64,000 bases of DNA. It comes from a virus. The notes beneath the pieces are model-generated. The model was not told where the DNA came from, ran no database searches, and saw nothing but the letters and a program-made list of their open reading frames with translations. The stretch is from IMG/VR virus record IMGVR_UViG_3300037510_000387; one strand, written 5' to 3'. Shown here piece after piece: positions 4,891 to 59,663 of this stretch; positions within the stretch are counted from its first letter, which is position 1, and the number at the start of each line of letters is the position of its first letter. Both the position numbers and the translations under genes were made by a program.

Positions 4891-5105
4891 CCTTCCTTCT
4901 CCTTTGCACGTTCGCGACGCGCGATTTCCCGCTCAAGGTACCACTTCGCTTTCTGTAGATCCTCAATCCCATTCTTGAGATCAGCGCGCCAGATGTACTT
5001 GATCGCGTTGCCAAGGCGAAATCCCATGTGCTCGACGATCTCGATACACTCAATGCCCGAGGCGTGCGAGATATAGTGCGATGGGTGGTTGACGTTATCG
5101 GCCAT
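4887..5105 (-). CDS. DUF3310 (SaV-like) protein
   Basis: VNHPSHY...IECIE...GNAIKYIWRA..KNGIEDLQKAKWYL signature. Confidence 0.85.
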   Translation of the reverse strand: MADNVNHPSHYISHASGIECIEIVEHMGFRLGNAIKYIWRADLKNGIEDLQKAKWYLEREIARRERAKEKEG

Positions 5106-27372: not shown

Positions 27373-27975
27373 ATGGGTGATCTCGGGCGAGCATTATATG
27401 ATCGCGGATTCGTGCAGGTTCGGTACATGGACACGAGCGCTGGACACCCAGGAACGCTCATAGCGAGACCTTTCCTGCCGGGCGGCGAGACGCCAAAGAT
27501 GCGCTACGGCACTGATCTTAAGATGATCGAATACCTGCCCAACCAGTACACGGGGAGCCACAGCACGGCGAGCCCAGGCAGGCCGGGCAACTTCATGGCG
27601 ACGTCGCTCGTGTACCAGGTGTTCGCGAAGATGGGTCAGACGGTGACGCCGGACGTGTGGGACCTGTTGGACCTGGATATGGTGTGCCGGCCGGACGGGT
27701 ACTCGGCGACCTGGTGGGTGCTCGATCAGGCGATGGCGTTGGGGTTGGCCGCGCCGCCAGTGGCAGTGCCCGTGGTCGATCCGCCGGCTCCAGTCGTACC
27801 TCCCGTGCTTCCGGCGCCTCCTCCGGTGGCGGTGCCGTCTACGCCGACCACAGGACTCAGCACGCCCGAACAGCGCGTTGACGAACTGTGGGCATGGATT
27901 GGGCAGCAGTGGCCGATCGTGCGACCGGTCGCGATACAGGCACTCAAGATGTTTCGGAAGGCGGTTGGCAAGTGA
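27373..27975 (+). CDS. domain + Pro/Val linker + C-terminal amphipathic helix protein
   Basis: ends LWAWIGQQWPIVRPVAIQALKMFRKAVGK. Confidence 0.75.
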   Translation: MGDLGRALYDRGFVQVRYMDTSAGHPGTLIARPFLPGGETPKMRYGTDLKMIEYLPNQYTGSHSTASPGRPGNFMATSLVYQVFAKMGQTVTPDVWDLLDLDMVCRPDGYSATWWVLDQAMALGLAAPPVAVPVVDPPAPVVPPVLPAPPPVAVPSTPTTGLSTPEQRVDELWAWIGQQWPIVRPVAIQALKMFRKAVGK

Positions 27976-28157
27976 GAGTTGCCGGCGCTGTTCTTTGTCT
28001 GCTGCTCGCACTGGTCTGTCTTGGGTCGTTCGGGGCGCAGGTACTGGTCTCCGTGGAGCCTGTCGTCGGCCGAGTGATCTTCGCGGTCATCGACCTTGCC
28101 GGCGCTATAGCCTGGAGTGGGCTCGGAATCCGACACTGGAGGAAGGGCCGCTCGTGA
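27972..28157 (+). CDS. small two-TM membrane protein
   Basis: two hydrophobic segments and a basic C-terminus; GTGA overlaps at both ends. Confidence 0.65.
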   Translation: MRVAGAVLCLLLALVCLGSFGAQVLVSVEPVVGRVIFAVIDLAGAIAWSGLGIRHWRKGRS

Positions 28158-33878: not shown

Positions 33879-34806
33879 ACGTGCAGCATCAATCGCGACC
33901 TTGCAGCATGCCCACACGATTGCCTCGGAATACGACGGCAATCTAACCGTCCGTCAACTCTACTACCAGCTCGTGGCCCGGGGGTATATCGAGAACAGTC
34001 AAGAGAGCTACAAACGGCTCGTTACAATCTTGACCGATGGACGGCTGTCGGGCGAATTCCCGTTCGAGTGGCTGCTCGATCGGACCCGCGAGGCCCGTCC
34101 CGGCCACTTCAGCGGCGATCAGACGTTCGTTGACAGCGCCCTAGCCAACGCCGCCCGCGAGCTGCGGCAGGCTCCCGAGTCGTGGCTCTGGCGCGACCGC
34201 TGGCTTGGACAGCCCTACCACGTTTCGGTGTGGGTCGAGAAGGAGGCACTGGCTGGAGTGTTCGAGGACCCATGCGAAGATCTCGGCGTTGCATGGTTCG
34301 TGCTCCGTGGGTATTCGTCGCTTTCGGCCCTGTCCCAGTGGGTCGACAACGTTGCCAATGCCTACAAGGACGGAGACTCGTCGATCACCGAGGCCGTCGT
34401 GCTGTACTTTGGGGATCACGACCCCGATGGATGGGAGATCCCGAGGAGTGCCGAGCGCAACGTCCAGGCTATCGCCGAGGTTCGTGGGATTGAGCTGCCC
34501 GAGGTAACGTTCGAGCGAGTTGCCCTCGTTCACAGCCAGATCGACCAATACAATCCTCCGCCGTTCCCCGCCAAAGAGACCAGTTCCAGGTACGACTCGT
34601 ACATTCGCGAGCATGGGTTGAGGGATGCGTGGGAGCTTGACGCGTTACGGCCGGACGTGCTCGATCGACTGATCCGGAATCGGGTCGAATCGTACTTTGA
34701 CAATGAGATCCATGAGCACAACAACGAAGAAGTCGCGACGGCACGGGACGAGATGCGGTCTCGGATGCGTGCCCCTGGTTGGGTTGCGGGAGCGCTCGGC
34801 AAGTGA
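33871..34806 (+). CDS. topoisomerase VI-A/Spo11-like TOPRIM protein
   Basis: WHD RQLYYQL with putative catalytic Tyr; VEKEA and GDHDPDG TOPRIM acidic motifs; WELDAL. Confidence 0.75.
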   Translation: MAKRAASIATLQHAHTIASEYDGNLTVRQLYYQLVARGYIENSQESYKRLVTILTDGRLSGEFPFEWLLDRTREARPGHFSGDQTFVDSALANAARELRQAPESWLWRDRWLGQPYHVSVWVEKEALAGVFEDPCEDLGVAWFVLRGYSSLSALSQWVDNVANAYKDGDSSITEAVVLYFGDHDPDGWEIPRSAERNVQAIAEVRGIELPEVTFERVALVHSQIDQYNPPPFPAKETSSRYDSYIREHGLRDAWELDALRPDVLDRLIRNRVESYFDNEIHEHNNEEVATARDEMRSRMRAPGWVAGALGK

Positions 34807-37664
34807 TCGTCGTTCCCGGCTCCGGCCCCGAAAACTCTGGCCTGATGGCGATCGGCGAGGCCCCGGGCGCCGTCGAATCCCAACTCCTCAGACCCCTCGT
34901 GGGCCCGTCCGGTGCCGCCTTCAACTGGTATCTCAACCGCCACGGGTTCGCGATCGGACAGTTCTACCTCGACAACGTGGTCCGTGAGTACCGACAAGGG
35001 AACCCCGACCCCACGCCAGAGCAAATCGCCGAATGGACACCTGTGCTCGAAGCCACGATCGCCCGCGTCAAGCCTCGCGTCATCATCACGCTAGGTCGAT
35101 TTGCGGCGCGGTGGTTTTTGGGTGAGGATGCCGATATGGATTCCTGCCACGGCATCCCGCACGAGGGCGGGGAATTCGCGGCGCCGCACGAGCAGGTGAT
35201 GTACCGTGCTCGGGCTCAGGGCGCCGTGATCGTGCCATCATTCCATCCGGCGTTCGGGTTGAGACAGGTCGACGCACGCACGTTGATCGACCACGATATC
35301 GAGAAGGCTGCCGACGTGATCCGCCTCGTGCGTGGTGGCCGGCGCGATCTCGTGCGATTCCGACGTGACGCCTATGCCGGACGTGAGCAGTACACCGACG
35401 TCACCGGGGCCGAGCTGCACGAGAACCTTCGTCGGTATCGCCGCATGGGGCTCACGCGAATTGGGTTCGACACGGAGGGCACACCCGAGGAGCCGTTCTC
35501 GTTGCAGGTTTCGCCGGAGCCGGGTGTCGCCTGGATGCTCAGGCCCACACAATCAGACTTCGCGATCGGCGTTGAGGCGTTGCAGGAGCTGGCCGACGCC
35601 GGGGTCGTGTTCGTGGTGCATGATGCTGGGACTCCCCGCGGCACCGGCTACGACACGCAGGTATCGCGGACGTGCGGCCTGCGCCTATCCCATGCCAAGT
35701 TTCACAACACGATGTACTCGGCTTTCGCCCTGCGCATTGAGCCCAAGGGCTTGAAGCCACTGCTGTGGCGTTGGTGCGGAATGCGGCAGCACGACTACTG
35801 GGGCATGGTCGAGGAGATTGGCCGGCAGAAGCAGATCGGGTATCTCAAGAGGGTGGCGTGGCGCGGGGACATGGACGCTATTCAGAGATTGTCGCTCGCG
35901 TTGGCTCGGCAGGCGGCAACCGATCTTGGGTTGGCGACCTCGATGTCGAACCCTGTCGCGCAACTGATCGAATCCTTGCGGCCGTGGCCTCGTGTACCGT
36001 CCCGCGTCGAGCGCCAGAACGACGGAACCTTGGCACTTGTCAATTTTGGCAAGCTGGAGTCGCGGGCAAAGGGCATTCTCACCGACATCATGGCTGGCGA
36101 GCTAGGCAAAGACGGCAAGCCAACCGATCCGCTCAAACGCTGGAAACAGATCGAGCCCGAGTTGCGTGTGCTGGCCGAACGTGAGCTGGGCAAGATTCCC
36201 ATGGGCACGATGTTCGACGTGCCGTTCGATCAGGCCGTGTTCTACGGATGTCGTGATGCCGATGGTGAAATTCGCTTGGACCCTGAGCTTGGTGCCGAGT
36301 GCCGTCGCATGGGTGTCGATGGTGTGTGCTGGACCGGGAACGAAGTGCTGCCAATCTTCGAGGAGATGCAGCACGATGGAATGCCGGCCAGTCGCCGTGC
36401 GTTCATCGACCTGGCCGAAACCTGCCAGCACGAGATGGACCAGCTCCAGAGCCAGATCTCGGTCGAGCACTGGGGCGGCAAACCGTTCAACCCAGCCCCG
36501 AACACGAAAGACGTCGAAGCACTGGTTGTGCGGTTGGGGATCACCGGCCTCAAGACGACGGCAAAATCGAAAAAACCCTCCACGAGCATGAAGTCGCTGG
36601 AGTACCTGGGCAACCGCTACCCGGCAATCTCGCTGATCGGGGAATGGCGTCGCCGCTACAAGGTGCTCTCCACCTACTGCCTGCCGTTGATCGAGGTTGC
36701 CGACGAGCAGCTTGGGATTGAGACCCGACAACTGGCCGAGTCCGACATGTTCCTGGTACGAGGCAACATCAAGCCGGCCACGGTCGAAACCCGACGATTG
36801 GCGATGGAAGAGCCCTCGCTGCTCAATGTGCCGGTCAGAACGGAGATCGGACGCCGGGTGCGTGGGTGCTACATGACGACCAACGCTGCGCACGATGACG
36901 ACCCAGACAATCCCGACACCGAGGTCTTCCTGGAGCTTGATTATTCGAGTCAGGAAGTGCGAATCACGGCGCACGTCACGGGGGATCGCCTGCTGTGCGA
37001 TATCTGCCGTGACCCGAAGCGCAAGATCCACATGGAGACCGCGAGCCGAGTGTTCGGCAAGCCTATCGACCAGATCGACGAGATCAGCGAGAAGATCCCT
37101 GCCAAGACAGCGTTCTTCGGGATGCTGTATGGAATGCAGGGGCCGGGGCTGTTGGACCTGTTTCGGAGCTTCGGGCTGGAGAACTGGCCGATCGAGGAGT
37201 GCGAGCGGTTGATTGCCGAGATCTTCAAGATCTACCCAGGGCTCAAGGAGACGATCTGGCGGATCGAACAAGAGACCAAGCGCACGGGCATGGTGCGGGA
37301 CCTGTACGGGCACATCCGATACCTGCCTGGGATCTGGTCGGCGAGAAGAGGGGAGGCGAACGAGGCGGCGCGACAGGCGTTCAGCCACGCCATTCAAGCG
37401 ACCGCCCAGGGGCAGATCCAGAACGCGATGGCCCAGCTTCGCAAGCCCATCCGGGAAATGCAACTGGGTGGGCTGTTCGTTAGGTGGGCGCTACAAGTTC
37501 ATGATTCTGTTTTGGTGAGGACGCGGCGATGGCTGGTGCCGATCGTTGCTCGGTTGATTGAGGAAGCGATGACGCAGAAGTATGGTGGTCCGCGAGGGCT
37601 CAAGTTGAGCGTGCCAGTGTTGGTCGAGTGGCACGCGAGCACACAGTGGTCGAAACTCAAGTGA
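34803..37664 (+). CDS. polA: family A DNA polymerase with N-terminal family-4 uracil-DNA glycosylase domain and 3'-5' exonuclease
   Basis: UDG GEAPG...FHPA; exo FDTEG, YD, YGCRD; polymerase motifs LDYSSQEVR, AKTAFFGMLYG, QVHDS. Confidence 0.92.
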   Translation: MIVVPGSGPENSGLMAIGEAPGAVESQLLRPLVGPSGAAFNWYLNRHGFAIGQFYLDNVVREYRQGNPDPTPEQIAEWTPVLEATIARVKPRVIITLGRFAARWFLGEDADMDSCHGIPHEGGEFAAPHEQVMYRARAQGAVIVPSFHPAFGLRQVDARTLIDHDIEKAADVIRLVRGGRRDLVRFRRDAYAGREQYTDVTGAELHENLRRYRRMGLTRIGFDTEGTPEEPFSLQVSPEPGVAWMLRPTQSDFAIGVEALQELADAGVVFVVHDAGTPRGTGYDTQVSRTCGLRLSHAKFHNTMYSAFALRIEPKGLKPLLWRWCGMRQHDYWGMVEEIGRQKQIGYLKRVAWRGDMDAIQRLSLALARQAATDLGLATSMSNPVAQLIESLRPWPRVPSRVERQNDGTLALVNFGKLESRAKGILTDIMAGELGKDGKPTDPLKRWKQIEPELRVLAERELGKIPMGTMFDVPFDQAVFYGCRDADGEIRLDPELGAECRRMGVDGVCWTGNEVLPIFEEMQHDGMPASRRAFIDLAETCQHEMDQLQSQISVEHWGGKPFNPAPNTKDVEALVVRLGITGLKTTAKSKKPSTSMKSLEYLGNRYPAISLIGEWRRRYKVLSTYCLPLIEVADEQLGIETRQLAESDMFLVRGNIKPATVETRRLAMEEPSLLNVPVRTEIGRRVRGCYMTTNAAHDDDPDNPDTEVFLELDYSSQEVRITAHVTGDRLLCDICRDPKRKIHMETASRVFGKPIDQIDEISEKIPAKTAFFGMLYGMQGPGLLDLFRSFGLENWPIEECERLIAEIFKIYPGLKETIWRIEQETKRTGMVRDLYGHIRYLPGIWSARRGEANEAARQAFSHAIQATAQGQIQNAMAQLRKPIREMQLGGLFVRWALQVHDSVLVRTRRWLVPIVARLIEEAMTQKYGGPRGLKLSVPVLVEWHASTQWSKLK

Positions 37665-40577: not shown

Positions 40578-43500
40578 CTACCTTCCCGGCCCCGAGCCTT
40601 GCCCCGTCCCGGTCTCGTTGACCCAGTTGACGACGCCCAGGCTGGGGTTGAGCCCTGGATAATTTTCGGCTCCGTTATGATACCGCAAGACGACGATGCG
40701 GGCGAACTTTCGGGCGGCGCCAATCGCCTTGGTGGCCTCGTCTCGCTGCTGCTCGGTGTCGAGGTCCCCATAGCCCTCCCTGGCGAACAATTCCTGGAGC
40801 AGGAGCTTGGACGCCCGCCCGGCCATTTGCTGGTAGAGAAAGTGCTCGTCGTCCGTGAGCTTGACCTTTTTCTTGTGATCGGTGACGTTGTTGCCCACGT
40901 AGCCCAGGGGCATGCCCAGGCGATCCAGCTCCTGGTCCAGAGGGTTCGTGTGCTCCTGGGTGGGCAGCAAGGCCGTGCCCGAGGCCAGCACCGTCCGCAG
41001 GCGTCCACCGGCCGGCACCACCTCCTCGCCCCAGGGATCGAGCTTGCCATTGAGGCCCAAAGACGCCACGGGCATGTTCTGGGTGAGGCGATCCGAGAAC
41101 GATCGGGCGTCAACGACCCGTGGATCAACGGCTTTGGCGATCGTGCGCACCAGCCCGGAATAGGGCACAAGGCCCCAGGTCGTGCTCGCGGCCAGGTCAG
41201 AGCCGGCACGCCCCGCACGCCCCTGCTCGCCCCCATGCAGCACGTCCATCAGCTTTGACAAGGCCAGCAGGTAGCTCTGGTCAGTGATGTGGGTGCCGAC
41301 TTGCACAGCCCCATCCGTGATTTTGCCCATGAGGTCGTCGTCGGGGTTTTCCTTCCAGCCCTCGTAAAAAGCCGCGGTCAGGGCAAGCGGCATGGCGATC
41401 GGCTGCATGTGGCCGTACGGAACCCAGCGCCCATCGTCGGTGCGAATCGACCACGGCTGCTTGTTGGCGCCGTAGAACGCGGCACGCTCGCCCTCGTCTT
41501 TGGGTGCGGCCCCCGTGATCCGGCCCTCCATTGCCATCGAAGCGGCGTAGGCCATGACCATGGAGCCGATTGACGCGCGAGCGGCTTGGGCGGCGGATTC
41601 GGCGTAATTGCCCGCCATGCGTTGGCCCGCGGCGTTGGCGAAATTGAACGGGGTGTATTCGAAACCGCGCACCATCAAACGGTCGGCGATGTGGACGAAC
41701 GGCAGCATGAATCCGGAGGCGGCGCGGTAAGTTTCGAGCGCGGCATTGCCCACAGGGTTCGAGCTGGTGACGCCAGGTAGGTCGCGCAGGCGGGTGATGC
41801 CCTGGCCAATCGCCGACGTCTGGTCGGTGAATGTGGCACGCCCAGCGAACCGGTCGGCGGCCTGGAGCATCTCGTCTGTGGGGTTCTTGATGAGCGTGGC
41901 AATACGGCCCGAGACGTCGAACGCGCCGGTTGCCCCGGCCCTGAGCGCCGCCAGCTCTTCCTTCGACGCGATTCGTGCGGCTTGGGCGTACAGCTCGGCC
42001 GTGAAATTCATCGTGCGAGCGATCGTCGTGGCCGCCGAGATGACGCGCGTGGGCATGGTCACGATGGGCCCGACGACGTTGCGCACGAATGGGCTTTGGG
42101 CACGAGCGAACGCCGATCGCGGAATAAACAGTGGGGTTCCCTCGGCGAGTCTGGGGTCGTAGCCACGCTGGATCACCTGGAGCCCACGACGGAAACCCTC
42201 GCGGATGCCACGGCCGAGCCCAGTGAAAGCCGCTGGGGTTTCGCGCAGGAACACCTCGCGCTCGGCGTTGGCTGCCGCCCCACCGCCCATCGTCCGTGCT
42301 GCATCCCACACTGCCGATAGTGGCCGCACGAATCCGTTCTCGCCCAGCATCATGAGCGTGTCGCCGATCACCTTGCGCTCGAACGGAATCGGAGTCGCCA
42401 GGATCGAATTGACCCAGTACTCGTGGACGAACTCACGGAACTTGGGCTTGTTGACCGAACGCAAAAAGGCTTGCAACTCCTCGGGATCGCCAGGGTTGAG
42501 CCGCGCCAAGCTATCCATCAACGGCTTTTGCTTGTCGAGCTGGTCGGCGTACATGCGGTACAGGCGCTGTTTGAGGAGTTGGTCGTCGCCCAACGCCAAT
42601 CGGGCCTCGATCTTGAGCGTGTTGAGCGCACGGCCATAGTCGGACCCGGCCTTAGCACCGATCTTGATGAGGTCCGACGCGGTGTCGATTCGGCGCAACA
42701 GCTCGGCCTGTTCCTCGGGCGTCGCGGTCCCTGCCACGAGCTTGCTTTGGAGGTCACCGATCGCCCGCTCGTTGCCTTTGATGACGTAGGTGAGGCGCAG
42801 GCGCTCCTCGGGCGGAAGGGTGTTCCAGCGCGGGTTGTCGTGCAGGAATTGCTCGGGCGTGGTGCCCGAACGCGCGGCCATGTCCTCGACCGTGTCCCAC
42901 GATTGCGGTGGGCCGATTTTGCGGAACACGTCGTCTGAGTTGTCGACGATGTATTGGGCAGCACGATCGGACTCCGGGCCACCGCCAAGCTGGGCCGCGA
43001 GGTTGGTTTGGAAATTGGCCGTGCGGATCGGGTCGGAGATCGCGCGTGGCGAGCCTGGAGGAACGTCCCAACCCATGGCTTTGGCGATTTCGGGCTCGGT
43101 CAGCGGAGGCAGCACAGGAGCTGGTGGCGGACCCGATGCGTAGAGCCGACGCGGGCCAGGCGACACTGGCGGGACATTGCTGTTCGCGGCCTCGGGGCCC
43201 GTTTCGCGCACGATGCCGTCCGGTCCCATCTGCACCTGATCCATCGCCCCTCGACCGTAATTAGCAACCGGCACCGAATCCGGATCGAGATAGTTCGGCG
43301 GATGCCAAGTGGGCCCCTCACCAATCCCGTCAGCCTCGAACAGAAAATCAGATTCGCGACGTGAAAGCGGTGCAGTCAGCTCCTCCATACGGGACAGAGC
43401 GCGTTCTTTGGCAGCGGCGATTGAGGCGTCTTCGGGAGATCCACCACGGCGAGGGAACCCCGCAAGCTGCCGGTTCAAGGCGTTGAATTCGGCCCCCTGC

Positions 43501-45584
43501 TCAGGACCCAAAACAGCAATAGCGCGATCGGAGGTCAGGGGCCCAGATGCATGATCGCCAGCACCAAGAGCACCGGGAATGCCCTCAATGCCCTCTGCTG
43601 TTACTGGGAATGGGCGACCGATCGCACCGATTCGCGCTAGCTCGTACTGCGGCACGGGCGGCTCCGGCCCAATGTCCGGATTGTGTAGGTCAAAAAACTT
43701 CTGTTCCAGCTCTGGTGATACCCCGAATCGCTCGACATGCTCGGGGTCCATGCCGTTCTTTTCGAGCCATGCCGTGTAGGCTCGGGCCTCGCCGTCACTC
43801 CTGATCCCACCAGTGGGCACGATCGATTCGTCGTTGAAGGCGTTGGCGTATTCGCGCTTCGACAGCGGGACCAACGCACCATCGACAGCCCCACCACTAA
43901 TCTCAGGCGCTGGGCGTGACACCCCTCGCGGCACCGGCTGCGCTGCTCTGCCGTACACGTCCCCAGCGCGAACCGCGTATCGCTCGGCCTCGGCAGTTCC
44001 CAGCTCCTGTCCACGAGCCCCTTGCGCGACGTGAACAATCTCGTGCATCATCGTGCCCAGATCCGAGCCGGGGGGCAATGACAGCGTTCCTGTCTCCGGC
44101 TCAAAGTACGCCGGTTCCGGCCCGACCTTGATCCTCGTGACGCCGGACGAAATCGAAGGGTAGCGAGTCGATGCGGCATTCCACAACGCCTCGGTTTGGG
44201 CCAGATCGGCATCGGTTGCACCGTGCCCGAGCACAGTCGGCGGCATCGGCAACGGGTCGCGCTCAAGGGTGCGAGGACGTGGAGAGGGTGTCGTGGGCTC
44301 GTCAAGAGCGATCGATGAGCCACCATCTTCCCCGGGGTATTGGCGCCACGGCCGACCCGTGAGGCTGCGCAGGGTGTCGGGGATCGTGCCTTTCCAGGTC
44401 GGTTCGGCCACGTTGATCGGGTTGGCGTCGCGGTAGATCAGAGGCTTGCGCGGAACAGCAAGGTCACGGGCCAGCTTGCCCTGGGCAATTTCGGACGGGG
44501 CTGATCCACGGCCGAACTCCCGCGTCACGAAGCCCGAACCATCCTCGATCACACGGGCCCCACCTTGGGCCTCCAGCTCAGCCACGCGTTGGGCTGCCGG
44601 CGACAATGCCTTAGCGCCACGCAAGCCCTCGACCAGCTCGGCCGGCCCTACCCAATTGACCGGATTGCCCACCTCGCCCAGCGCGGCTTGTCCGGTTTCG
44701 GTTCCGGCGGCGGCAAGCGGCGAGTCCCCGGCGCGAATCGAGGCATCGAGCAGGCGCTCACGGGCCGGGTCCACAACATCGCGCTGGATCAGGTCGGTGC
44801 CTTGGCCTGTTGGATCAGCCGCCCAATCCCGCAAAAATTCGCCACGGAACCCCTCGCCCGCTGGGCGCCCACTCCCGATATTTTGGGCTTCGGCAACGAG
44901 CGCCGGGACTGCGCCATGAGCCGTTCTTGAGGCAAGTCCCACAGCACTGCCCACTGAGCCCGCAACACGCGCGGGAATGCCGCGAAGGAACTCACGCGAG
45001 GCGTCGACCTGGGCATCGAGATCAGCGTAGGGATCGGGTGGTGCCGCGGCGGACATGTCGCCTGACTTGTGATGCTTGAGGTAGCGTTCGCCGGTTTGGG
45101 GGTTTTCGTAGTACATGCCCCGGTCGGCGAATCCGGCCTGGGACATGGCGTCGGCGCCACCAGCCTCGACCTCGCCGAGTTGGGCGTTGCGGGCGTATTT
45201 CGACCAGTCCTCCGGGTTGTCTGAGCCCGTGACCGATCGCCAATAGTCCTCGGAACGGTGCAGGGGCGGCGGCTGAGGACCCGCATTCGGTGGCATGGAA
45301 ACGACGGCCGGATGGCGAGCAGCGGCACCGGATAGGTCAATGGTGCTAGGGTAAGCAGCAGCGCGGTCGGTCTCGCGCTGCAAATGAGAAAGGTCGAACG
45401 ACGATGGAACCTGGCGCGCGGTCGAGTCAACGCCACCCTCGACATCCGAGAAATCAGGGCCCACAGCGTGCTCGTGATGCGTGCCCGCGCGAGCCCGAGC
45501 AATCGCAGCGCGGATCACGTCCTCGGCCGTCCCATCCGGGAACTGCAACAGCTGTCCGGTTTCGTCGTCGGTGATCGAGATCAC
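40578..45584 (-). CDS. large polyvalent/DNA-ejection virion protein with zincin-like HExxH domain and LPD38-like C-terminus
   Basis: 1668 aa; GTMMHEIVH; C-terminal GRITGAAPKD..ERAAF...QPWSIR...WVPY...QP; position after the smaller ejection genes. Confidence 0.75.
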   Translation of the reverse strand: MISITDDETGQLLQFPDGTAEDVIRAAIARARAGTHHEHAVGPDFSDVEGGVDSTARQVPSSFDLSHLQRETDRAAAYPSTIDLSGAAARHPAVVSMPPNAGPQPPPLHRSEDYWRSVTGSDNPEDWSKYARNAQLGEVEAGGADAMSQAGFADRGMYYENPQTGERYLKHHKSGDMSAAAPPDPYADLDAQVDASREFLRGIPARVAGSVGSAVGLASRTAHGAVPALVAEAQNIGSGRPAGEGFRGEFLRDWAADPTGQGTDLIQRDVVDPARERLLDASIRAGDSPLAAAGTETGQAALGEVGNPVNWVGPAELVEGLRGAKALSPAAQRVAELEAQGGARVIEDGSGFVTREFGRGSAPSEIAQGKLARDLAVPRKPLIYRDANPINVAEPTWKGTIPDTLRSLTGRPWRQYPGEDGGSSIALDEPTTPSPRPRTLERDPLPMPPTVLGHGATDADLAQTEALWNAASTRYPSISSGVTRIKVGPEPAYFEPETGTLSLPPGSDLGTMMHEIVHVAQGARGQELGTAEAERYAVRAGDVYGRAAQPVPRGVSRPAPEISGGAVDGALVPLSKREYANAFNDESIVPTGGIRSDGEARAYTAWLEKNGMDPEHVERFGVSPELEQKFFDLHNPDIGPEPPVPQYELARIGAIGRPFPVTAEGIEGIPGALGAGDHASGPLTSDRAIAVLGPEQGAEFNALNRQLAGFPRRGGSPEDASIAAAKERALSRMEELTAPLSRRESDFLFEADGIGEGPTWHPPNYLDPDSVPVANYGRGAMDQVQMGPDGIVRETGPEAANSNVPPVSPGPRRLYASGPPPAPVLPPLTEPEIAKAMGWDVPPGSPRAISDPIRTANFQTNLAAQLGGGPESDRAAQYIVDNSDDVFRKIGPPQSWDTVEDMAARSGTTPEQFLHDNPRWNTLPPEERLRLTYVIKGNERAIGDLQSKLVAGTATPEEQAELLRRIDTASDLIKIGAKAGSDYGRALNTLKIEARLALGDDQLLKQRLYRMYADQLDKQKPLMDSLARLNPGDPEELQAFLRSVNKPKFREFVHEYWVNSILATPIPFERKVIGDTLMMLGENGFVRPLSAVWDAARTMGGGAAANAEREVFLRETPAAFTGLGRGIREGFRRGLQVIQRGYDPRLAEGTPLFIPRSAFARAQSPFVRNVVGPIVTMPTRVISAATTIARTMNFTAELYAQAARIASKEELAALRAGATGAFDVSGRIATLIKNPTDEMLQAADRFAGRATFTDQTSAIGQGITRLRDLPGVTSSNPVGNAALETYRAASGFMLPFVHIADRLMVRGFEYTPFNFANAAGQRMAGNYAESAAQAARASIGSMVMAYAASMAMEGRITGAAPKDEGERAAFYGANKQPWSIRTDDGRWVPYGHMQPIAMPLALTAAFYEGWKENPDDDLMGKITDGAVQVGTHITDQSYLLALSKLMDVLHGGEQGRAGRAGSDLAASTTWGLVPYSGLVRTIAKAVDPRVVDARSFSDRLTQNMPVASLGLNGKLDPWGEEVVPAGGRLRTVLASGTALLPTQEHTNPLDQELDRLGMPLGYVGNNVTDHKKKVKLTDDEHFLYQQMAGRASKLLLQELFAREGYGDLDTEQQRDEATKAIGAARKFARIVVLRYHNGAENYPGLNPSLGVVNWVNETGTGQGSGPGR

Positions 45585-49781: not shown

Positions 49782-49876
49782 CCCTTTTCGCGCGCCACGG
49801 TGTCCGATAGAATCAGCGAGATGGCGCGGCCCGGCAATGAAGCTAGGAACGCTTGCTGTACGATAGGAGATATCTT

Positions 49877-50377
49877 ATGCGATTCACCCTGCAACGTACG
49901 AAGTTGGTTTCGTGTTTGATGGTTCTGGTTTTTGGATTCTTGCTCTCTCGTCCCGGGGCTGCTCAGCAGCAGGCCCCACGACACCGGCCCGTATTCGCCA
50001 GTCGCGAGGCGGTCGAGATGGACGCGGCTCGACGACTTTCTCGTCAACCCTCCTACCTCAAGGCCCAAGGCCCGACCAGCTCCAACACGGTCACCTATGA
50101 AGGCAACGTCGCCCAAAACTTCCTCTCGGGAACCTATGGTGCAGTGCTGGTGGATCTCGGGCTGTTCCGGTTCGAGTGTGACAACGGGGCGTATACGCTC
50201 GGATGTGCCTACGTTAGCCCCGGGGATCACGTTCTGATCTACGGCCACCTGCGCACCTACTTGAGCTGCCGACACGACGCCACGGATGACGAGGTCGTGG
50301 TCAACCTGATCTACAAACGAGTCACAGTACCGTGCGGAGATCTTATTTGCACAACCTGGACCCTGCTGACCCAGTAG
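49877..50377 (+). CDS. secreted cysteine-containing protein (antisense moron)
   Basis: AGGAG RBS; Sec signal ending PGAA; five Cys; fills the gap between two tail genes on the opposite strand. Confidence 0.7.
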   Translation: MRFTLQRTKLVSCLMVLVFGFLLSRPGAAQQQAPRHRPVFASREAVEMDAARRLSRQPSYLKAQGPTSSNTVTYEGNVAQNFLSGTYGAVLVDLGLFRFECDNGAYTLGCAYVSPGDHVLIYGHLRTYLSCRHDATDDEVVVNLIYKRVTVPCGDLICTTWTLLTQ

Positions 50378-50414: not shown

Positions 50415-51995
50415 TCACGCCGCATAAGCACCTCCCGTAGCAATCTCAACCTCCAGACCGGCGATCTCGGCTATACGGCTCGGGATCGCCAGCAAGGTCA
50501 GCTTGATACGATGAAAGTCCGCGAACAGCGTATCGGGCGTTGAGATCCAACCGTGAGTGTCTAGCGGTGCCATGTAGGTCTGGACTGCTGGCGTCTCGAA
50601 CGGCTTGTTCTTCGAGCGAATCTCGATTGTGGCAGTAGGTAGGATCGAATTGTCTACCATTGAGTAAATTGGCCGCACACGGGTAACTCGCGTTGTTACA
50701 TCTTCGTCGAACTGCATATAGCCTTTTTCAAGCACGCACGAGACCGATGAGGCCGAACGATACGGCACCCCCAAATAGTAAACATTACCGGTGCTAAAAT
50801 CACCGCATAGGGCCACAAGGTCACGCCCCGGGCACCAGCCACTGGTCTGCTCTGGCCGAGTTTGCAGAAACAGGGCGCCGAACGCCTTGTCGAGAGCACC
50901 GTCAAACCTGGGGGTCTCGAACGAGAACCTGTCAGTGTCCACGTCATAGATCAGGATTGGAGTTTCAGTGGCGGCCGGGTACGACCACCAGATATGACGG
51001 TTGAGGTGGTCCGCAGCGACAGAAATATTGAAAGTGTCGGCTCCGGAGTACACGCCCGCGGCAAATGCTGAATCGAACGAGAAGTCGGTCAGGGTGTGGG
51101 CCAATTTGCCCTTCGTGATCGGAATCGCAGGACCTTCTCCGCCGCGGAACACCATTGGACCCGAGGGTCCCCAGAAGTAGACGTCATCATCGAACCGTAC
51201 GATACCATTCGGGCAAAGGTTGCCGACTCCCTGGGAAATCGGTCGGAAAGTGTAAGGTGGCCCATCGATCCGGGCCCAGCCACGTTGCATTGAGACCAGT
51301 CCGTACTGGCCACCGATTCCGCCCGTAATCGCTCCCAAGTCGTAAAGCAGGGGCTGGTAGCCAGTGCCCGTGAGCTGCGGCGTCACGTTGAACGAGCCGT
51401 ACTGTCGGATGTTGTCGGTTTGTGACCAACAAACAGTGGTTGGATTAGCACCAGAGGACAACCCATCGAACCCGGAGGCCAGGTTGAGATAGGCGAGGAA
51501 CATGTTGTTACGGACAGGGAAGGCGAACTTGGCTTTCGGGTCCATGCCGGGGTTACCGGAGCCCGACTGCGCCAACTTGACAAAATTGGCCGCGGCGGGT
51601 GACGTCAGAAGCTGAGGATCGTCCGCATAATTCGTCATCAGCACAGCACCGCCGAATGAGGCCCCTACCCACTGATCGAGCGTGTAGGGGCCGCCGGCCG
51701 CACGAGTTTTGGCCGCGACCGTCCAGGCAGCGATGTTCGTGTTCGAGGCTTCATAGAGATCGGTGGTGTTGCCCCAATAACCATACCAAGTGTTGCCCGA
51801 CGTGCTTGCATGGGCATGGAGTCCACGGGGAAGATTGACAAGAGCAGTGGTGTGCGCGAGCCATGTCTGCGACGGAATGTAGGTATCACCGATCGGCGCC
51901 ACGTTCACGGCCTGGGAAAGACCATCATTGTTGAACTCCCGTGCATCTGGCGAAAGCTCACCGAACGGGATGAAGATGCGTTTAGTGCTGGGCAT
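50415..51995 (-). CDS. tail hub/stabilisation protein (P22 gp10 / T7 tubular-B-like)
   Basis: 526 aa with beta-propeller-like repeats (VCWSQTDN, GIVRFDDDVYFWGPSG, IWWSYP, LIYDV). Confidence 0.75.
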   Translation of the reverse strand: MPSTKRIFIPFGELSPDAREFNNDGLSQAVNVAPIGDTYIPSQTWLAHTTALVNLPRGLHAHASTSGNTWYGYWGNTTDLYEASNTNIAAWTVAAKTRAAGGPYTLDQWVGASFGGAVLMTNYADDPQLLTSPAAANFVKLAQSGSGNPGMDPKAKFAFPVRNNMFLAYLNLASGFDGLSSGANPTTVCWSQTDNIRQYGSFNVTPQLTGTGYQPLLYDLGAITGGIGGQYGLVSMQRGWARIDGPPYTFRPISQGVGNLCPNGIVRFDDDVYFWGPSGPMVFRGGEGPAIPITKGKLAHTLTDFSFDSAFAAGVYSGADTFNISVAADHLNRHIWWSYPAATETPILIYDVDTDRFSFETPRFDGALDKAFGALFLQTRPEQTSGWCPGRDLVALCGDFSTGNVYYLGVPYRSASSVSCVLEKGYMQFDEDVTTRVTRVRPIYSMVDNSILPTATIEIRSKNKPFETPAVQTYMAPLDTHGWISTPDTLFADFHRIKLTLLAIPSRIAEIAGLEVEIATGGAYAA

Positions 51996-52001
51996 GATTG
52001 C

Positions 52002-52259
52002 TCACTTCCCGTGCGTCAGCCACCAGATCAAAGCTGCTAGTGCGGACGGCACCAGGCCAGCGATTGCGCCCCAGATCCCCGCTTTTTGTTTGAGCAGGGC
52101 GATCTCTACCTTCACATTAGCGATGTCGTCGGCCCGAAACGCATCCATCTTCCGCTCCAGATCCTGCACCTGCGTGCATACCCTCGTGAGTTGATCGAGC
52201 ACGAGCAGCTTGTACTCGTTCCACCCCGGCGTCGGAGGCCCTCCCAGGTCAGTGCTCAC
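52002..52259 (-). CDS. holin-like / XhlA-like coiled-coil + C-terminal TM protein
   Basis: coiled coil then GIWGAIAGLVPSALAALIWWL; GTGA overlap with the PAS gene. Confidence 0.6.
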   Translation of the reverse strand: MSTDLGGPPTPGWNEYKLLVLDQLTRVCTQVQDLERKMDAFRADDIANVKVEIALLKQKAGIWGAIAGLVPSALAALIWWLTHGK

Positions 52260-52684
52260 TGTGGCGTGTCCCTCTTGCGCCAAACGACCGCTGACGTAAT
52301 AAGCCCGGCCGTGGTCATGCGCGGCGACAGGGTAATTTCGACAGGGACCTCCTTGCCGTTCTTTTGCCTCGCGGTTAAGGACATGCCAATGCCCATCGGA
52401 CGCTTTCGCGGGTCGTCGGCATAGCGAGCCCGGTGCCCGGCGTGAGCCGCACGAGCCGATTCAGGAACGAGCATCTCGACCGGCTGGCCGATTACCTCGG
52501 ATCGCGGATAGCCAAACAACAGCTCGGACGCGGCGTTGAAATATACGACGTGTCCGGCCTCGTCTACGGCCAGAAACGGCACCGGTAGATCCTCAAGCCA
52601 ACCAGCAACGATCTCAGGCCCGATCAGGTCTTGAGTCAGCTCGCGAAGGCGCTCCAGGCCGGCAGGGGTAGATTCGTCAGTCAA
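52256..52684 (-). CDS. stand-alone PAS-domain protein
   Basis: GGAGG RBS and TTG start; PFLAVDEAGHVVYFNAASELLFGY..SEVIGQPVEMLVP...H..HR..Y...P..RPMGIG..L.A..KNG.EVPVEITLS. Confidence 0.9.
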   Translation of the reverse strand: MTDESTPAGLERLRELTQDLIGPEIVAGWLEDLPVPFLAVDEAGHVVYFNAASELLFGYPRSEVIGQPVEMLVPESARAAHAGHRARYADDPRKRPMGIGMSLTARQKNGKEVPVEITLSPRMTTAGLITSAVVWRKRDTPQ

Positions 52685-53429
52685 GGATTGAGCCCTCCAG
52701 ATACTGCACGCCTGATGTTTTGCTTTCGGTTTCGTCCTCCAACTGACCAACGGCTTCGAGCCACCCAGCCAACGTCTCCTGCGCCGCATCCACATTATTC
52801 AGGTAGCGCTTCTGAACCTCGTACATCGCTCGCAGGCGAATTGCCGCGGCACCCGCCTCCTGCATGGTCCAGTCGTTCGACCAGGCATCCACTTCCGCCG
52901 TGCTCAACACACGTCCCTCTGTGGGGTGGAAGAACGCGAATCCGCCGGCCGTAGGGTCCCACGACACCCGCGGGATGCCAACGTTCGTGAGGTAGCGCAG
53001 CTCGGCGATGTCGGCTGATGACGACGGCGTGGGCGAAAACCGCAAGGTGCCGTTGCGCCAATCCCACTCGGATGGCTGCGACGTCGAGTTGCCCCAGCCC
53101 AGGATTGACTCCTCCCACATCGAGGTTGAGACGCGCACGCACGCCATGCGCGAGTTTTGGTTGCCCGACAAGATGATCCAAATGATGCGCGAGGCGACTT
53201 CCACGAGATCGGGAGGCAAGCCGAAACCGTCACCCGGGCGATAATCGCGCTTGCCAGCCGTGAGATTGAACTGGAGGGTTTGGTCGCTGAAAAAATAGCG
53301 CTTGTTACGATGGAACAGCATGGCGTCGACGATGTACCGGCGCAGGATCGGCTCGATGCCCGAAACATGCAGGTCGGCCATTGCCCACTGCAAAATTGTG
53401 CCTAGCGTTCCGTCGCCCTTGATCGGCAT
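52677..53429 (-). CDS. head-to-tail adaptor (tail tubular A / gp4-like)
   Basis: L.AGKRDY...LP.D....I; SQPSEWDWRNGTLRFSPTP; helical C-terminus; position after the capsid genes. Confidence 0.7.
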   Translation of the reverse strand: MPIKGDGTLGTILQWAMADLHVSGIEPILRRYIVDAMLFHRNKRYFFSDQTLQFNLTAGKRDYRPGDGFGLPPDLVEVASRIIWIILSGNQNSRMACVRVSTSMWEESILGWGNSTSQPSEWDWRNGTLRFSPTPSSSADIAELRYLTNVGIPRVSWDPTAGGFAFFHPTEGRVLSTAEVDAWSNDWTMQEAGAAAIRLRAMYEVQKRYLNNVDAAQETLAGWLEAVGQLEDETESKTSGVQYLEGSILD

Positions 53430-54329: not shown

Positions 54330-55487
54330 CTAGGCCGAGGTCACCAGCTCCTGTGCGTAGGACACGACAACGATGCGCCCGTAGTCGTCGGTCGTCCCTT
54401 GTTCCTTGACCGAGAAATTGGGGCACGCGAGACCGAGGAACGACGTGGCCGCGATGGCCTTGTTGTTCCCGAAGTCCCAGTTCTCTTCGTCGTTCTGGAA
54501 CAGGTTCTGGCCGTCGTACTCCTTGGCGACGCCGAACACGAGGCTCTGGGCGCCACAGAAGGCGTTGCGACGGGCGTTGGCGACGCGAGTGTTGGTCGAG
54601 CTGAGGCCCGGCGGCACGTAGTTGTTCTCGACGATGAGCACGTCGTCCCAGATGCCGAGGGCGCCAGTCCACCACGGATGGTTTTCGACTTCGCCACCGA
54701 TCATGGCCGCACGCATCACCTCCATCCACTGCGAGTTGGCCTTCATGTGGCGCAGGGCGTAGCTGTGGGCGAACAACACGTACAGCTCCCGGCCGTTGAT
54801 CGACGCCGGCCTGATCGGGATCGGCATGTTCTTGGCGTAAGCCTTGAGCGTGCTGATCGTGTCCAGGTCGATGATCGCGCTGGGGTCGTTGCCCGTGTTC
54901 GTGTCGTCGGTGTCGGTGTTGTTGCCGATCCGGTAGATGTGCTTGGAGTCGGGAGCGTGAGGAGCGTTCGAGAGCGTGTACCCCAGGCTCGCCCCGTTGT
55001 GATACCACTCGGCCTGGGTGCGGACATCATAAGCGACGCCGCCAAGGTGCAGCATCGCCCCGGCTTCGAGCACCTTCGCCCAGTAGATCCCGAGCGAGTC
55101 CTTGCTCTCCTTCCACACGTTCCAGGTGACACGCTTGGCGGTGACACGGCCCACGACCTTCGTGGCGTGGCGGACCTGGTTGATCTGCCACTTGAAGGTC
55201 GCGGTATCGAACGTTTCCTCGCGATCACGGAGCGGGGTATTGCCGAACGTGGGCTCGCCGCGCAGCTCGCGCTTGAGGGTAACGGTTGCCTGGGTGCCCG
55301 AGCCGCCGCCGTTTTCCGAGTCCCACACCTGCTTGCGCTTCTGGCACAGGGCGTCGGGGCCGTCACCGATGAACCCGTACCGCTTCGACATGAGAGGAGT
55401 GCGAAGGGCAATCTGCACCATCAGCTCCTTCTCCCATTTCTGGACGGTTTCCGGGTCGGTCAGGTCGAAATATTGGGAATTGGCCAT
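54330..55487 (-). CDS. major capsid protein (N4-gp56/DUF4043-like)
   Basis: GGAGG RBS; DPETV..W..EL, TLK.ELRGEP..G...L...EE, YVLFAH...G.W..V.I.E; follows portal and scaffold. Confidence 0.88.
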   Translation of the reverse strand: MANSQYFDLTDPETVQKWEKELMVQIALRTPLMSKRYGFIGDGPDALCQKRKQVWDSENGGGSGTQATVTLKRELRGEPTFGNTPLRDREETFDTATFKWQINQVRHATKVVGRVTAKRVTWNVWKESKDSLGIYWAKVLEAGAMLHLGGVAYDVRTQAEWYHNGASLGYTLSNAPHAPDSKHIYRIGNNTDTDDTNTGNDPSAIIDLDTISTLKAYAKNMPIPIRPASINGRELYVLFAHSYALRHMKANSQWMEVMRAAMIGGEVENHPWWTGALGIWDDVLIVENNYVPPGLSSTNTRVANARRNAFCGAQSLVFGVAKEYDGQNLFQNDEENWDFGNNKAIAATSFLGLACPNFSVKEQGTTDDYGRIVVVSYAQELVTSA

Positions 55488-55763
55488 GTTGGGCCAAACC
55501 TCCTGCAAGGTCTGCAAGTCCGGTCAGTTGGTGTCTGCCCCCGGGCGACGAGCGATAAGATCAGTCCGATGCCTGGGGACAAGCCGTCGTGACAATGCGT
55601 TGTGCTGCCGGAGGTTTATGCAGGAGGTCCGGTGACCTGCGGCCCGGATTCGTGCGGGTGTCCGGGTCCCGCGGCCTGGGCTTGGGGAACGCCGCCCAGG
55701 AAGGCGCGAGCCGGGAAGAGAAGGGGAGATGGGGGGCTCCCGGCGGCCCTTGGAGATGAAGCT
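55488..55763 (-). promoter_or_regulatory. ~275-nt structured 5' leader of MCP with two anti-SD elements
   Basis: four hairpins; ACCTCCTGCA (55619-55628) and AAACCTCC (55610-55617) are complementary to the MCP SD region TGCAGGAGGTTT. Confidence 0.6.
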
Positions 55764-55769
55764 GAGAAG

Positions 55770-55799
55770 AGTTTACACCCGGAGCCTGGAGAGTGTCTA
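55770..55799 (-). promoter_or_regulatory. putative MCP promoter
   Basis: TAGACA-18nt-TAAACT. Confidence 0.5.
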
Positions 55800-57440: not shown

Positions 57441-59663
57441 TTATTGCTGCTGGCCAGGAGTCGGTTGGCCCTGGCCTTGTCCATTTCCCTGTGCCGCGCC
57501 CTGTGCCTGCGACTGGTCCTGCCGAAGCCCCGCGAGCACCAGCGCTTGGTCCGCGGCATCCGGCGCTACCGCAGCCAGGTCCTTATAGTTGATCGACACT
57601 GCCTCTTTGGCGTGTTCCTTGTCCGCCTGCTCCTGCTGTTGCTGCTGAGCCTGGGCCTTTTGCTGCTGGAACTGCCGCTGCTGCATCTTGATCCGGGCCA
57701 GCATCTTCTGGCGCAATGCGGCCGGCATTTTCGGGAACATTTTGATCCAGTCCTCAGCCTGGAACAGGGGCTGTCCCGTGTCCGGCATCGGAGCTTGGAG
57801 CAGTTGGACCTGGGTCTGCACAACGCTCCAAAAAGTTTCGAGGTCGGAATCGCTCGGCGCCACTTCCTCGATAGCGATTTCTTTCCACGAGTCCTCGTGC
57901 CACATTTCCTTGGGCGGAATCGTGAACGTGCGTTGGCCGGTCGGTTCGCCGGTTGTCGGATCGAGCACGTCGTCGTAGGCATCGGATTCGCCAATGAACT
58001 GCACGAGGTCTTCGGGCTCCCACAACGTGCGGGCAAAGGCCAAAAAGATCCGGCCACCGTCGCGACGATACAGCCTGAGCGAGTCGATCCGTTCCGCATT
58101 GCTCGTCATGGTGGCATCGGCCAACTGCTTGATGACCTCGCCCGACACACGGCGGATATCCGAGCCCAACTGTCCAAGCGCCGCCGGATTGAACCCCGCC
58201 AAGCGCGGAATCGCTTCTCGATAGAACTCAAGCATCGTTTGGAGCTTGTCACCGTATTGCCCGGACGGCGCAGGGATCAGCTCATAGGGCCTGTTGCCCC
58301 CCGTGCCTGCCAACCGCCCACGCTGTACCTCGATCACACCACCAGGAGCCGTCCACGCCGTCAAAGCCTCGTTTTTGTCGCGGAACAACCCCTGCTCGAC
58401 CATGATGCCGCCTTTGGGGTTGATCTGAATGTCCCGGATCAGGGCGCTCATCATGTAATTGACCATTTTTTGGGCGTCTTCGAGGTCCTTGAGCAGCGAG
58501 ATGTAGAGCGTGCGGTCCTCCAGCTCGATCACCTCAGCGGCCATGGCTTGGAATGTGAACAAGCCCTGCTCGATCTCGCCTTCTTCGAGGATCTCGTCGC
58601 CGCACCCATAGATGTACTTGTACACCATGCGCTGCTTGCGGGCCGCGGCATCGTCGGGCACATCCTCGTCGAAGGCAGCCAAGCGCTCACGACGGAAATC
58701 CTTGAGCTGGTCGACGGTCATCTCAACGGTCTCGAACGGATCGGGAGGACCGTTCTCCGGTGAACCCTGCCCACTGCTCTCGGACCCCTGGAGCGCGAGA
58801 ATCCGCTGCTTGTCCAGCTCCAACGCCTGCTCGTACGACATTGACGGATCAACCGGCCGCGCGACCTCCCAGTACGTCTCCATTTCGCGCAGCTCTTCGC
58901 GCTCGATCCAGAAGCAGCGGGTTTTGGGGTCGTACACGTCCTGCATGGACAGGGGTCGGTTGCCGATGTCGCCCGACCACGGGATGCGCGACGATTGGCC
59001 CGTTTGCTGTTGGAGCGCGGACCACTGGCGCTGGCCAAGTTGGAGCCGAATCTTGTCGTAGGCATTGGACCAACGAGCGCGCACCGTCGACTGTGGCCAC
59101 CACGAGCCCCAACGATGCCAGGCACGATCGCTGAGGTTGATCTGCCGCGTGCTCGGCCACATCATCTGCCAAATTGGGACCGTTTCGTACCGGAGCTGGG
59201 GTGTTGAGCGCGACCAGTCGTCGACAAACCACCGGACCCATGAGATTCCTTGGATGCCGGGCCCGTCCCGGAACGCCGCCGAGTCGACCTGCTCGCCGTC
59301 ACATGCCTGACACACCGCCTTGTCGACGCGCGAGAGGGTTTCGGCGAACCGTGCGGTGTCCTGGTTGCGCGGGATATACTCGCGCTCGACACGCTGCATG
59401 ATCTGTTTGCCGGAGAAGGCAGCGAGGACACGGGAGGTCTCGGGCACCGTGAGGCGAGCGGAACGTTTGTTGGGGTCGTTCGCGAGGTTGCCGGGCGATT
59501 TGGGATCGGGCCACTGTTTGCGCGCGGCAAACTTCTTGAGGCGCGAGGCTTCGGCCCAGAAGTCGCGGCAGTTGGCAATACCCTCCGCGCGGTGCTCACG
59601 CCAGAGCGTCAAGGTCGACGTGTCGGTCGAAAGGCGATCGCTGTATGAGACGGTGTCAGCCAC
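57441..59663 (-). CDS. portal protein (P22-like)
   Basis: 740 aa; GISWV, WQMMWP, LLKDLEDAQKMVNYMMS, Q-rich C-terminal helical barrel; follows TerL. Confidence 0.88.
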   Translation of the reverse strand: MADTVSYSDRLSTDTSTLTLWREHRAEGIANCRDFWAEASRLKKFAARKQWPDPKSPGNLANDPNKRSARLTVPETSRVLAAFSGKQIMQRVEREYIPRNQDTARFAETLSRVDKAVCQACDGEQVDSAAFRDGPGIQGISWVRWFVDDWSRSTPQLRYETVPIWQMMWPSTRQINLSDRAWHRWGSWWPQSTVRARWSNAYDKIRLQLGQRQWSALQQQTGQSSRIPWSGDIGNRPLSMQDVYDPKTRCFWIEREELREMETYWEVARPVDPSMSYEQALELDKQRILALQGSESSGQGSPENGPPDPFETVEMTVDQLKDFRRERLAAFDEDVPDDAAARKQRMVYKYIYGCGDEILEEGEIEQGLFTFQAMAAEVIELEDRTLYISLLKDLEDAQKMVNYMMSALIRDIQINPKGGIMVEQGLFRDKNEALTAWTAPGGVIEVQRGRLAGTGGNRPYELIPAPSGQYGDKLQTMLEFYREAIPRLAGFNPAALGQLGSDIRRVSGEVIKQLADATMTSNAERIDSLRLYRRDGGRIFLAFARTLWEPEDLVQFIGESDAYDDVLDPTTGEPTGQRTFTIPPKEMWHEDSWKEIAIEEVAPSDSDLETFWSVVQTQVQLLQAPMPDTGQPLFQAEDWIKMFPKMPAALRQKMLARIKMQQRQFQQQKAQAQQQQQEQADKEHAKEAVSINYKDLAAVAPDAADQALVLAGLRQDQSQAQGAAQGNGQGQGQPTPGQQQ

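Follow-up and report, generated by a model that had tools for sequence, protein, structure and literature searches.

In the heme-PAS sensors EcDOS/DosP and FixL, the PAS domain is covalently joined to a phosphodiesterase or a histidine kinase, and we take the ligands to be proximal His77 and distal Met95 in DosP and the pair His200/Arg220 in FixL. The nearest described protein to the one considered here is FG214, a heme-PAS of Fimbriimonas ginsengisoli fused to a helix-turn-helix (HTH) DNA-binding domain (PDB 10jx/10jy; bioRxiv 10.64898/2026.03.15.711900 = PMC13060918). FG214 has proximal His156, distal His175 and an alternative distal Met172, with His159 nearby, and the redox or ligand state of its heme shifts the balance between monomer and dimer and sets a partner domain free (PMC13060918). 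We describe a related phage gene, which encodes a stand-alone PAS protein and overlaps a gene for a small membrane protein, at positions 52002 to 52684 of a 64,000-nucleotide stretch (the window) of the virus record IMGVR_UViG_3300037510_000387. The window is nearly all of this 64,727-bp IMG/VR record, which is linear, has a G+C content (GC) of ~62% and a CheckV completeness of 80%.

T4-type inhibition aside, the timing of phage lysis is generally attributed to the accumulation of holin and the energisation of the membrane. In T4, the small soluble antiholins RI and RIII bind the soluble domain of the one-transmembrane holin T and delay its triggering on a signal. We know of no phage that reads host oxygen or redox state with a cofactor-bearing sensor of its own, and to our knowledge a signal-gated lysis clock has not been described for any phage. 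VqmA_Phage of vibriophage VP882 is a PAS-HTH transcription factor whose ligand is a quorum-sensing molecule and which governs the choice between lysis and lysogeny (PMC8284805); like the protein described here it is a phage-encoded PAS protein, and it lets the phage read a cellular or chemical cue, but it does not belong to the heme type and lacks a membrane partner. It was the only characterised phage PAS sensor found in our literature search, which yielded nothing on heme-PAS in lysis, in agreement with the initial annotation of this window, which knew of no characterised PAS-holin pairing. For the small protein, the comparison is with XhlA of PBSX and gp24.1 of SPP1, proteins of ~80 amino acids whose N-terminal part is a coiled coil in the cytoplasm and whose C-terminal part is a transmembrane helix (PMC6316719) and that are harmless alone and required together with a holin of two transmembrane segments (PMC6316719, PMC5589764).

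Judged from sequence, the PAS protein and its neighbour, a tail-anchored helix, constitute a conserved and translationally coupled module. Its features are as follows.

52256..52684, minus strand: stand-alone heme-type PAS protein, 142 amino acids, TTG start, without output domain (Pfam, profile, AlphaFold2 (AF2)/Foldseek).
52442..52444, minus strand: codon of His81, the putative proximal ligand of heme, which corresponds to FG214 His156 and presumably to DosP His77 (aligned with 10jx and DosP).
52394..52396, minus strand: codon of Met97, which aligns with Met172, the alternative distal ligand of FG214 (alignment; Met in 53/62 phage PAS proteins).
52385..52387, minus strand: codon of Gly100, at the site of FG214 distal His175, with Met101 next (alignment).
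52256..52259, minus strand: four bases, GTGA, shared by the end of the PAS gene and the start of the small gene, predicted to couple translation (NTGA in 9/17 pairs).
52002..52259, minus strand: predicted tail-anchored single-helix protein, 85 amino acids, with a coiled-coil-like N-terminal helix and a C-terminal transmembrane segment (AF2, hydropathy).
52017..52079, minus strand: predicted transmembrane segment, residues 61-81 of the small protein, with a conserved A60/G64/G68 pattern just inside it (hydropathy scan).

Residues 30-134 of the 142-amino-acid protein match Pfam PAS PF00989 (E=1.7e-16). The Pfam models PAS, PAS_9 and PAS_4 all exceed their cut-offs and there is no other domain: no linked kinase, phosphodiesterase (PDE)/GGDEF or HTH output domain was found with Pfam, so that the initial description of a complete single PAS domain without an output domain is borne out. 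The ~30 homologues at 64-86% identity are all 137-148 amino acids long. By profile and by modelled fold, the protein is of the heme class of PAS domains (FG214/DosP/FixL). Among solved structures, the family profile gave its best match to FG214 (10jx; E=1.4e-27), and matched DosP at E=9e-22 and FixL at E=2.5e-20 to 3e-14, while non-heme PAS structures were matched at 3e-7 or weaker. The AF2 model (predicted local distance difference test, pLDDT, 87) has the canonical helix/strand order, and the top 32 matches of this model in a Foldseek search of the PDB were all heme-PAS (FG214, EcDOS, FixL). FG214 was again the best match; fold similarity to EcDOS and FixL was 0.7-0.9 by target (template-modelling score, TM). 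The phage protein differs from FG214 in being coupled to a separate membrane protein instead of fused to a DNA-binding domain.

The candidate heme ligands are conserved in the phage family. H81, in the motif AAHAGH, falls at the position of the proximal His, on the F-alpha helix that also carries it in DosP and FixL, and is kept in 61/62 phage PAS proteins; together with the FixL profile match this upholds the alignment to the FixL heme pocket, with a candidate proximal His, that had been proposed at the outset. H81, H84 and M97 correspond to FG214 His156, His159 and Met172, and the FG214 spacing (H, H+3, M+16, H+19) is reproduced across the phage family. The position of the distal Arg of FixL is Met in the phage PAS. 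At the site of the FG214 distal His, 29/62 phage proteins have His, the two closest homologues have Asn and this protein has Gly100. The heme of this protein would likely be held by His/Met ligation and not by bis-His ligation.

The partner is modelled by AF2 as one unbroken helix spanning residues 13-83 (pLDDT 91), with a hydrophobic stretch at ~61-81, as expected from the initial description of a coiled-coil protein with a C-terminal transmembrane segment. Since only THGK lies beyond the end of the helix, the protein is most simply read as tail-anchored, with a cytoplasmic N-terminal helix. An A60/G64/G68 pattern is conserved in the family, with G64 and G68 each kept in at least 90% of 97 relatives; such a glycine-zipper-like pattern is typical of membrane helices that self-associate. 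The family is large, comprising 1153 representatives at E<=1e-3, mostly of 75-95 amino acids. The 85-amino-acid protein itself has no Pfam match (E<=0.1) and no PHROG match, and the label 'holin-like' that it had been given is not sustained: neither database yields a holin match, and the tie to XhlA is architectural and positional only. Two of the 97 relatives match the holin family phrog_689. When either the small protein or the PAS protein was compared by tblastn with 50,697 GenBank phage records, there was no match.

The association of the two genes extends well beyond this window (compared loci are numbered with the prefix L). Close homologues of the PAS gene and of the small gene share contigs, with 37 close small-protein homologues lying on contigs of PAS homologues, and the genes overlap or abut in 17/17 PAS-small pairs: nine by a 4-nucleotide NTGA, seven by 8-32 nucleotides, and one with a single-base gap. 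Thus, the proposed two-gene sensor/membrane system is found as a conserved coupled pair. Both genes are under strong purifying selection; the ratio of nonsynonymous to synonymous divergence (dN/dS) from relatives is 0.10-0.24 for the PAS gene and 0.15-0.29 for the small gene (0.1-0.4 overall), and nonsynonymous polymorphism (pN) is far below synonymous polymorphism (pS).

We surveyed the adjacency of PAS and membrane-protein genes from the side of the small protein, in 80 IMG/VR loci that carry a relative of it (52 unique). A heme-type PAS gene lies directly upstream in 11 of these loci. Ten upstream open reading frames (ORFs) seemed to lack a PAS domain, and Pfam identified five of these as divergent PAS proteins; with an iterated profile, a stand-alone PAS was found directly upstream in at least 18 of the 52 unique viral loci, at GC values from 0.36 to 0.69. 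Divergent stand-alone PAS proteins (PAS_3, PAS_9, PAS_4) precede the small gene in L118, L121, L123, L125, L142, L172 and L176, and divergent partners lack the proximal His. Because the same small protein pairs with non-heme PAS types, the module is best described as a PAS with a tail-anchored helix in which the sensor can be swapped; that is, sequence comparison suggests that the sensor type is interchangeable. Two loci (L112:2632-3499 and L115:1540-2411) carry two consecutive heme-type PAS genes, the small partner and then an ORF of 63-73 amino acids with two transmembrane segments, the size of a class II holin.

These pairings bear on whether the PAS of this phage senses heme at all. It could instead serve the small protein in a fixed role, as its chaperone in the cytoplasm or its stoichiometric partner, an explanation favoured by the exchange of the FG214 distal His for Gly here and Asn in the two closest homologues, and by the partnership of the same small protein with PAS domains without the proximal His, which implies that heme is not essential to the module. 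However, the proximal His, His84, Arg85 and Met97 are still strictly conserved in the PAS family. The His/Met state of heme ligation is presumably that of DosP also. It is moreover a known heme-PAS state, being that of FG214 when reduced (PMC13060918). We therefore regard a loss of heme sensing as quite unlikely.

The PAS protein has more than 550 cellular matches at 40-54% identity, from many phyla including soil phyla (contig scan), and the gene was therefore probably captured from a host sensor; the matches do not inform on which host the phage has. Given relatives of this kind and the common tendency of PAS domains to dimerise, the phage protein might act as a decoy: it would form heterodimers with heme-PAS sensor kinases or regulators of the host and so redirect the host's oxygen response, its membrane partner merely positioning it near the kinases. 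Host takeover accords poorly with expression in a late operon and with the tight coupling to a membrane protein of the phage, and likewise with the tandem PAS genes found inside lysis cassettes (below) and the substitution of non-heme PAS proteins, and we consider the decoy improbable.

Our preferred explanation, in which our confidence is evenly divided, is that lysis timing is gated by redox state or gas through a heme-PAS acting on an XhlA-like membrane protein. The two genes would be a single module, expressed late along with the virion proteins. The PAS would be a cytoplasmic heme-b sensor with His81 as its proximal ligand and a Met (97 or 101) as the likely sixth ligand, and the 85-amino-acid helix would self-associate in the inner membrane through its glycine-zipper-like transmembrane segment, leaving a helix of ~45 residues facing the cytoplasm. 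A change in heme redox state or gas ligand would alter the conformation and oligomeric state of the PAS, as in FG214, and the PAS would thereby hold or release the cytoplasmic helix of its partner. The partner, either a holin helper like XhlA/gp24.1 or the holin or antiholin itself, would set when the membrane is breached, so that lysis timing would follow the respiratory state of the host. The likeness to T4 RI and RIII is one of concept only, namely a soluble protein restraining a membrane protein: there is no sequence or fold relation, and the T4 signal is superinfection and not a cofactor-borne redox or gas cue. The wider proposition, that in many uncultured phages an interchangeable PAS gates an XhlA-like protein and lysis is set by oxygen, redox or other cues, is more tentative, and we lean somewhat against it.

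If lysis is gated in this way, the module would explain how phages of soil and sediment adjust burst timing to oxic-anoxic shifts, and synthetic biology would gain a compact membrane switch that responds to redox state or gas. Otherwise, a strongly conserved late-gene pair is still unexplained. Since the module is conserved and widespread and consists of two small proteins, the lysis question is directly testable.

The small protein shares with XhlA/gp24.1 (Pfam PF10779; phrog_1193) its size of ~80 amino acids, an N-terminal coiled coil and a single C-terminal transmembrane segment. In many relatives, though not in the window, the gene is also placed comparably: the XhlA gene comes directly after the tail genes and opens the lysis cassette, with holin and amidase genes next in Bacillus phages, and genes for relatives of the small protein mostly come after large tail genes. 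Some relatives match phage families around XhlA: 8/97 match phrog_1193, which itself matches gp24.1 at 9e-11 (a weak cross-match), 34/97 match phrog_1103 (7.6e-4 against gp24.1), and 2/97 match Pfam XhlA. The nearest clusters in protein-language-model space include XhlA ones (score 0.93-0.94). Pfam XhlA did not match the 85-amino-acid protein, nor anything in the genome translated in six frames; the 64-kb window showed no XhlB-like holin, and XhlA differs in having no known PAS partner. The protein thus resembles XhlA in architecture and gene slot, but these signs of kinship are weak and indirect and homology is unproven; given the profile-profile probabilities reported below, we do not assign it to the XhlA family.

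Relatives of the PAS gene lie beside endolysin genes more often than expected. A confident endolysin is found within 2 kb downstream in 6 of ~20 distinct PAS loci, from five catalytic families, compared with an estimated chance of ~4% (binomial ~1e-4, a rough value without correction for phylogeny). The pairs of L110 and L009/L111 adjoin a Peptidase_M15_4 (7e-11) and an Amidase_2 (9.5e-15) endolysin, respectively, that of L152 adjoins a PG_binding_1 plus Phage_lysozyme2 protein (~1e-12), and the slot of L004 holds a Peptidase_M15_4 endolysin. In L005, a GH19 gene (a precomputed weak match) follows small membrane ORFs that are holin- and spanin-like. With respect to the full neighbourhood of a two-transmembrane holin and an endolysin, the two-transmembrane ORF is next to the pair in L112 and L115, for example, and the endolysin is present in L152, L110 and L111; neither was found in the window. 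In clusters on bacterial contigs that resemble gene transfer agents (GTAs) or prophages (L006-L008, L010), tandem PAS genes stand between an i-spanin-like gene and a GH25 endolysin with a lipoprotein, and holin-like genes for multi-transmembrane proteins come just before; the order in L006:2976-6511, repeated in L007, L008 and L010, is a 4-transmembrane ETR1_N-like protein, a multi-transmembrane protein, a coiled-coil protein with an N-terminal transmembrane segment, two tandem heme-type PAS proteins, the GH25 endolysin and the lipoprotein. The cassettes of L006, L007, L008 and L010 close tail clusters (Phage-tail_3, Rcc01698_C), and no small tail-anchored partner is found there.

Several observations weigh against gated lysis in this phage. 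The FG214 distal His is replaced by Gly in this PAS. When the 97-sequence family of the small protein was compared by hhalign with SPP1 gp24.1, the probability was 1%, and with a 5-sequence XhlA alignment it was 14.5%, over the transmembrane segment only. The phage's own group (the window, L001, L194, L195 and L196) has the pair surrounded by structural genes, in a single variable slot that is bounded by the adaptor-position gene and a structural gene of ~520 codons, and an endolysin occurs in that slot only in L004. No endolysin or multi-transmembrane holin was found in the window with Pfam (~30 ORFs) or PHROGs (~70 ORFs), and tblastn with four endolysins from related loci and two scans for transmembrane segments gave no convincing lysis gene there. 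The 96 ORFs downstream of the small-protein loci matched only 13 Pfam families, most having no recognisable function. The statement in the initial annotation that no endolysin is visible in the window therefore stands; a gene setting that would fit its suggested link to lysis is seen in the relatives, which adjoin endolysins more than chance would predict, and not in the phage's own group. As the record is linear and CheckV rates it 80% complete, absence of an endolysin is not proven; part of the genome may be missing from the record, or its lysis genes may have diverged beyond recognition. The sole multi-transmembrane small ORF that we found is in the early/middle region (27888-28157, plus strand); its product of 89 amino acids contains two or three hydrophobic stretches, but a longer ORF overlaps it and its coding signal is weak (G+C at third codon positions, GC3, 0.63).

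The slot of this phage group sometimes also holds ORFs of 114-172 amino acids predicted to be beta-rich, and Pfam gave no match for the extra small slot genes of L195, L196 and L004. We rejected the idea of a freely mobile cassette, since the pair of the close family is nearly always in this one variable slot (L003 is the exception). The setting does suit a late membrane role outside lysis, be it superinfection exclusion, control of energisation or respiration, or membrane-associated virion maturation, with the PAS reporting the state of the cell: the pair of the phage's own group is inside the head-tail operon with structural and decoration-like genes, no lysis gene is nearby in 5/6 contexts, and the slot further contains a gene on the opposite strand for a presumably secreted, Cys-rich protein, a kind of gene typical among accessory cargo. 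Distant relatives, however, adjoin five endolysin families and sit in a full holin/spanin/endolysin cassette, and relatives of the small protein generally occupy the XhlA slot after the tail genes. On balance we consider a role outside lysis unlikely. The opposite-strand gene, in the tail module at 49853-50377 (plus strand), has counterparts at L001:7332-7826, L195:7056-7466 and L196:7098-7679; the products (136-193 amino acids) have a signal peptide, are Cys-rich and have no Pfam match. Because its position is kept in related phages, this gene may encode a secreted accessory or exclusion factor.

The surroundings of the pair are those of a virion operon. The window encodes a P22-like portal at 57441-59663 and a Phage_capsid_3 major capsid protein at 54330-55517, the latter at most 32% identical to capsids of cultured phages, which indicates a distant relation only. 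The late operon on the minus strand runs in the order capsid gene, 153-amino-acid gene, 250-amino-acid gene, PAS gene, 85-amino-acid gene, 526-amino-acid gene, and the features that flank the pair are as follows.

52677..53429, minus strand: 250-amino-acid gene upstream of the PAS gene, in head-tail adaptor position (position; syntenic homologues in L001, L194).
52677..52684, minus strand: overlap of the PAS TTG start and the stop of the upstream gene, TTGACTGA (sequence reading).
50415..51995, minus strand: predicted 526-amino-acid virion structural gene, which begins 6 nucleotides past the small-gene stop (phrog_3287, E=1e-24).
55770..55799, minus strand: sigma-70-like promoter match, the sole one upstream of the capsid-to-PAS gene string (promoter scan).

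Both overlaps that had been noted initially are confirmed by the coordinates on the minus strand. The PAS start TTG (52684-52682) lies within CTTGACTGA and overlaps the TGA stop (52677-52679) of the upstream 250-amino-acid gene; a GGAGGG Shine-Dalgarno sequence lies 8-13 nucleotides before the TTG, and this start matches the N-termini of ~30 homologues. At the other end, the PAS stop overlaps the GTG start of the 85-amino-acid gene in GTGA (52256-52259), with AGAGGGA upstream. The name 'adaptor' that the upstream gene had received fares less well than its overlap with the PAS start, since it reflects position only: the 250-amino-acid protein has no Pfam or PHROG match, and neither BLASTP nor hhalign against SU10-adaptor-like neighbours gave an assignment. 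The 526-amino-acid protein has a homologue at 66% identity in L001 and a distant one in L004 (517 amino acids, E=2e-10), while a single-protein IMG/VR search with it returned no relatives. Since the only promoter-like site precedes the capsid gene and the minus strand has no convincing terminator between the capsid gene and the 526-amino-acid gene, late co-transcription of the capsid-to-PAS string is the simplest reading.

The position of the pair between the adaptor-position gene and the virion structural gene, tightly coupled to both, would also be expected if both proteins were packaged virion or ejection components. We hold this to be very improbable, because known virion parts do not resemble a heme-type sensor or a tail-anchored helix of the inner membrane, and the same pair is found in other contexts (L003, L005, L009, L110, L152).

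Other genes of the record include one for a late protein of 1668 amino acids at 40578-45584 (minus strand) that has no Pfam match; upstream of the PAS pair of L003, a related phage, there is a 1457-amino-acid protein with an LPD38 polyvalent-protein domain. At 34779-37664 (plus strand) lies the gene for a 961-amino-acid protein in which a uracil-DNA-glycosylase-superfamily domain at the N-terminus (E=7e-20) is joined to a DNA polymerase domain of family A (E=5e-58). Two further minus-strand genes encode a ThyX thymidylate synthase (5095-5805, E=1e-39) and a YAcAr/SLOG-type domain protein (11563-12285, E=5e-7).

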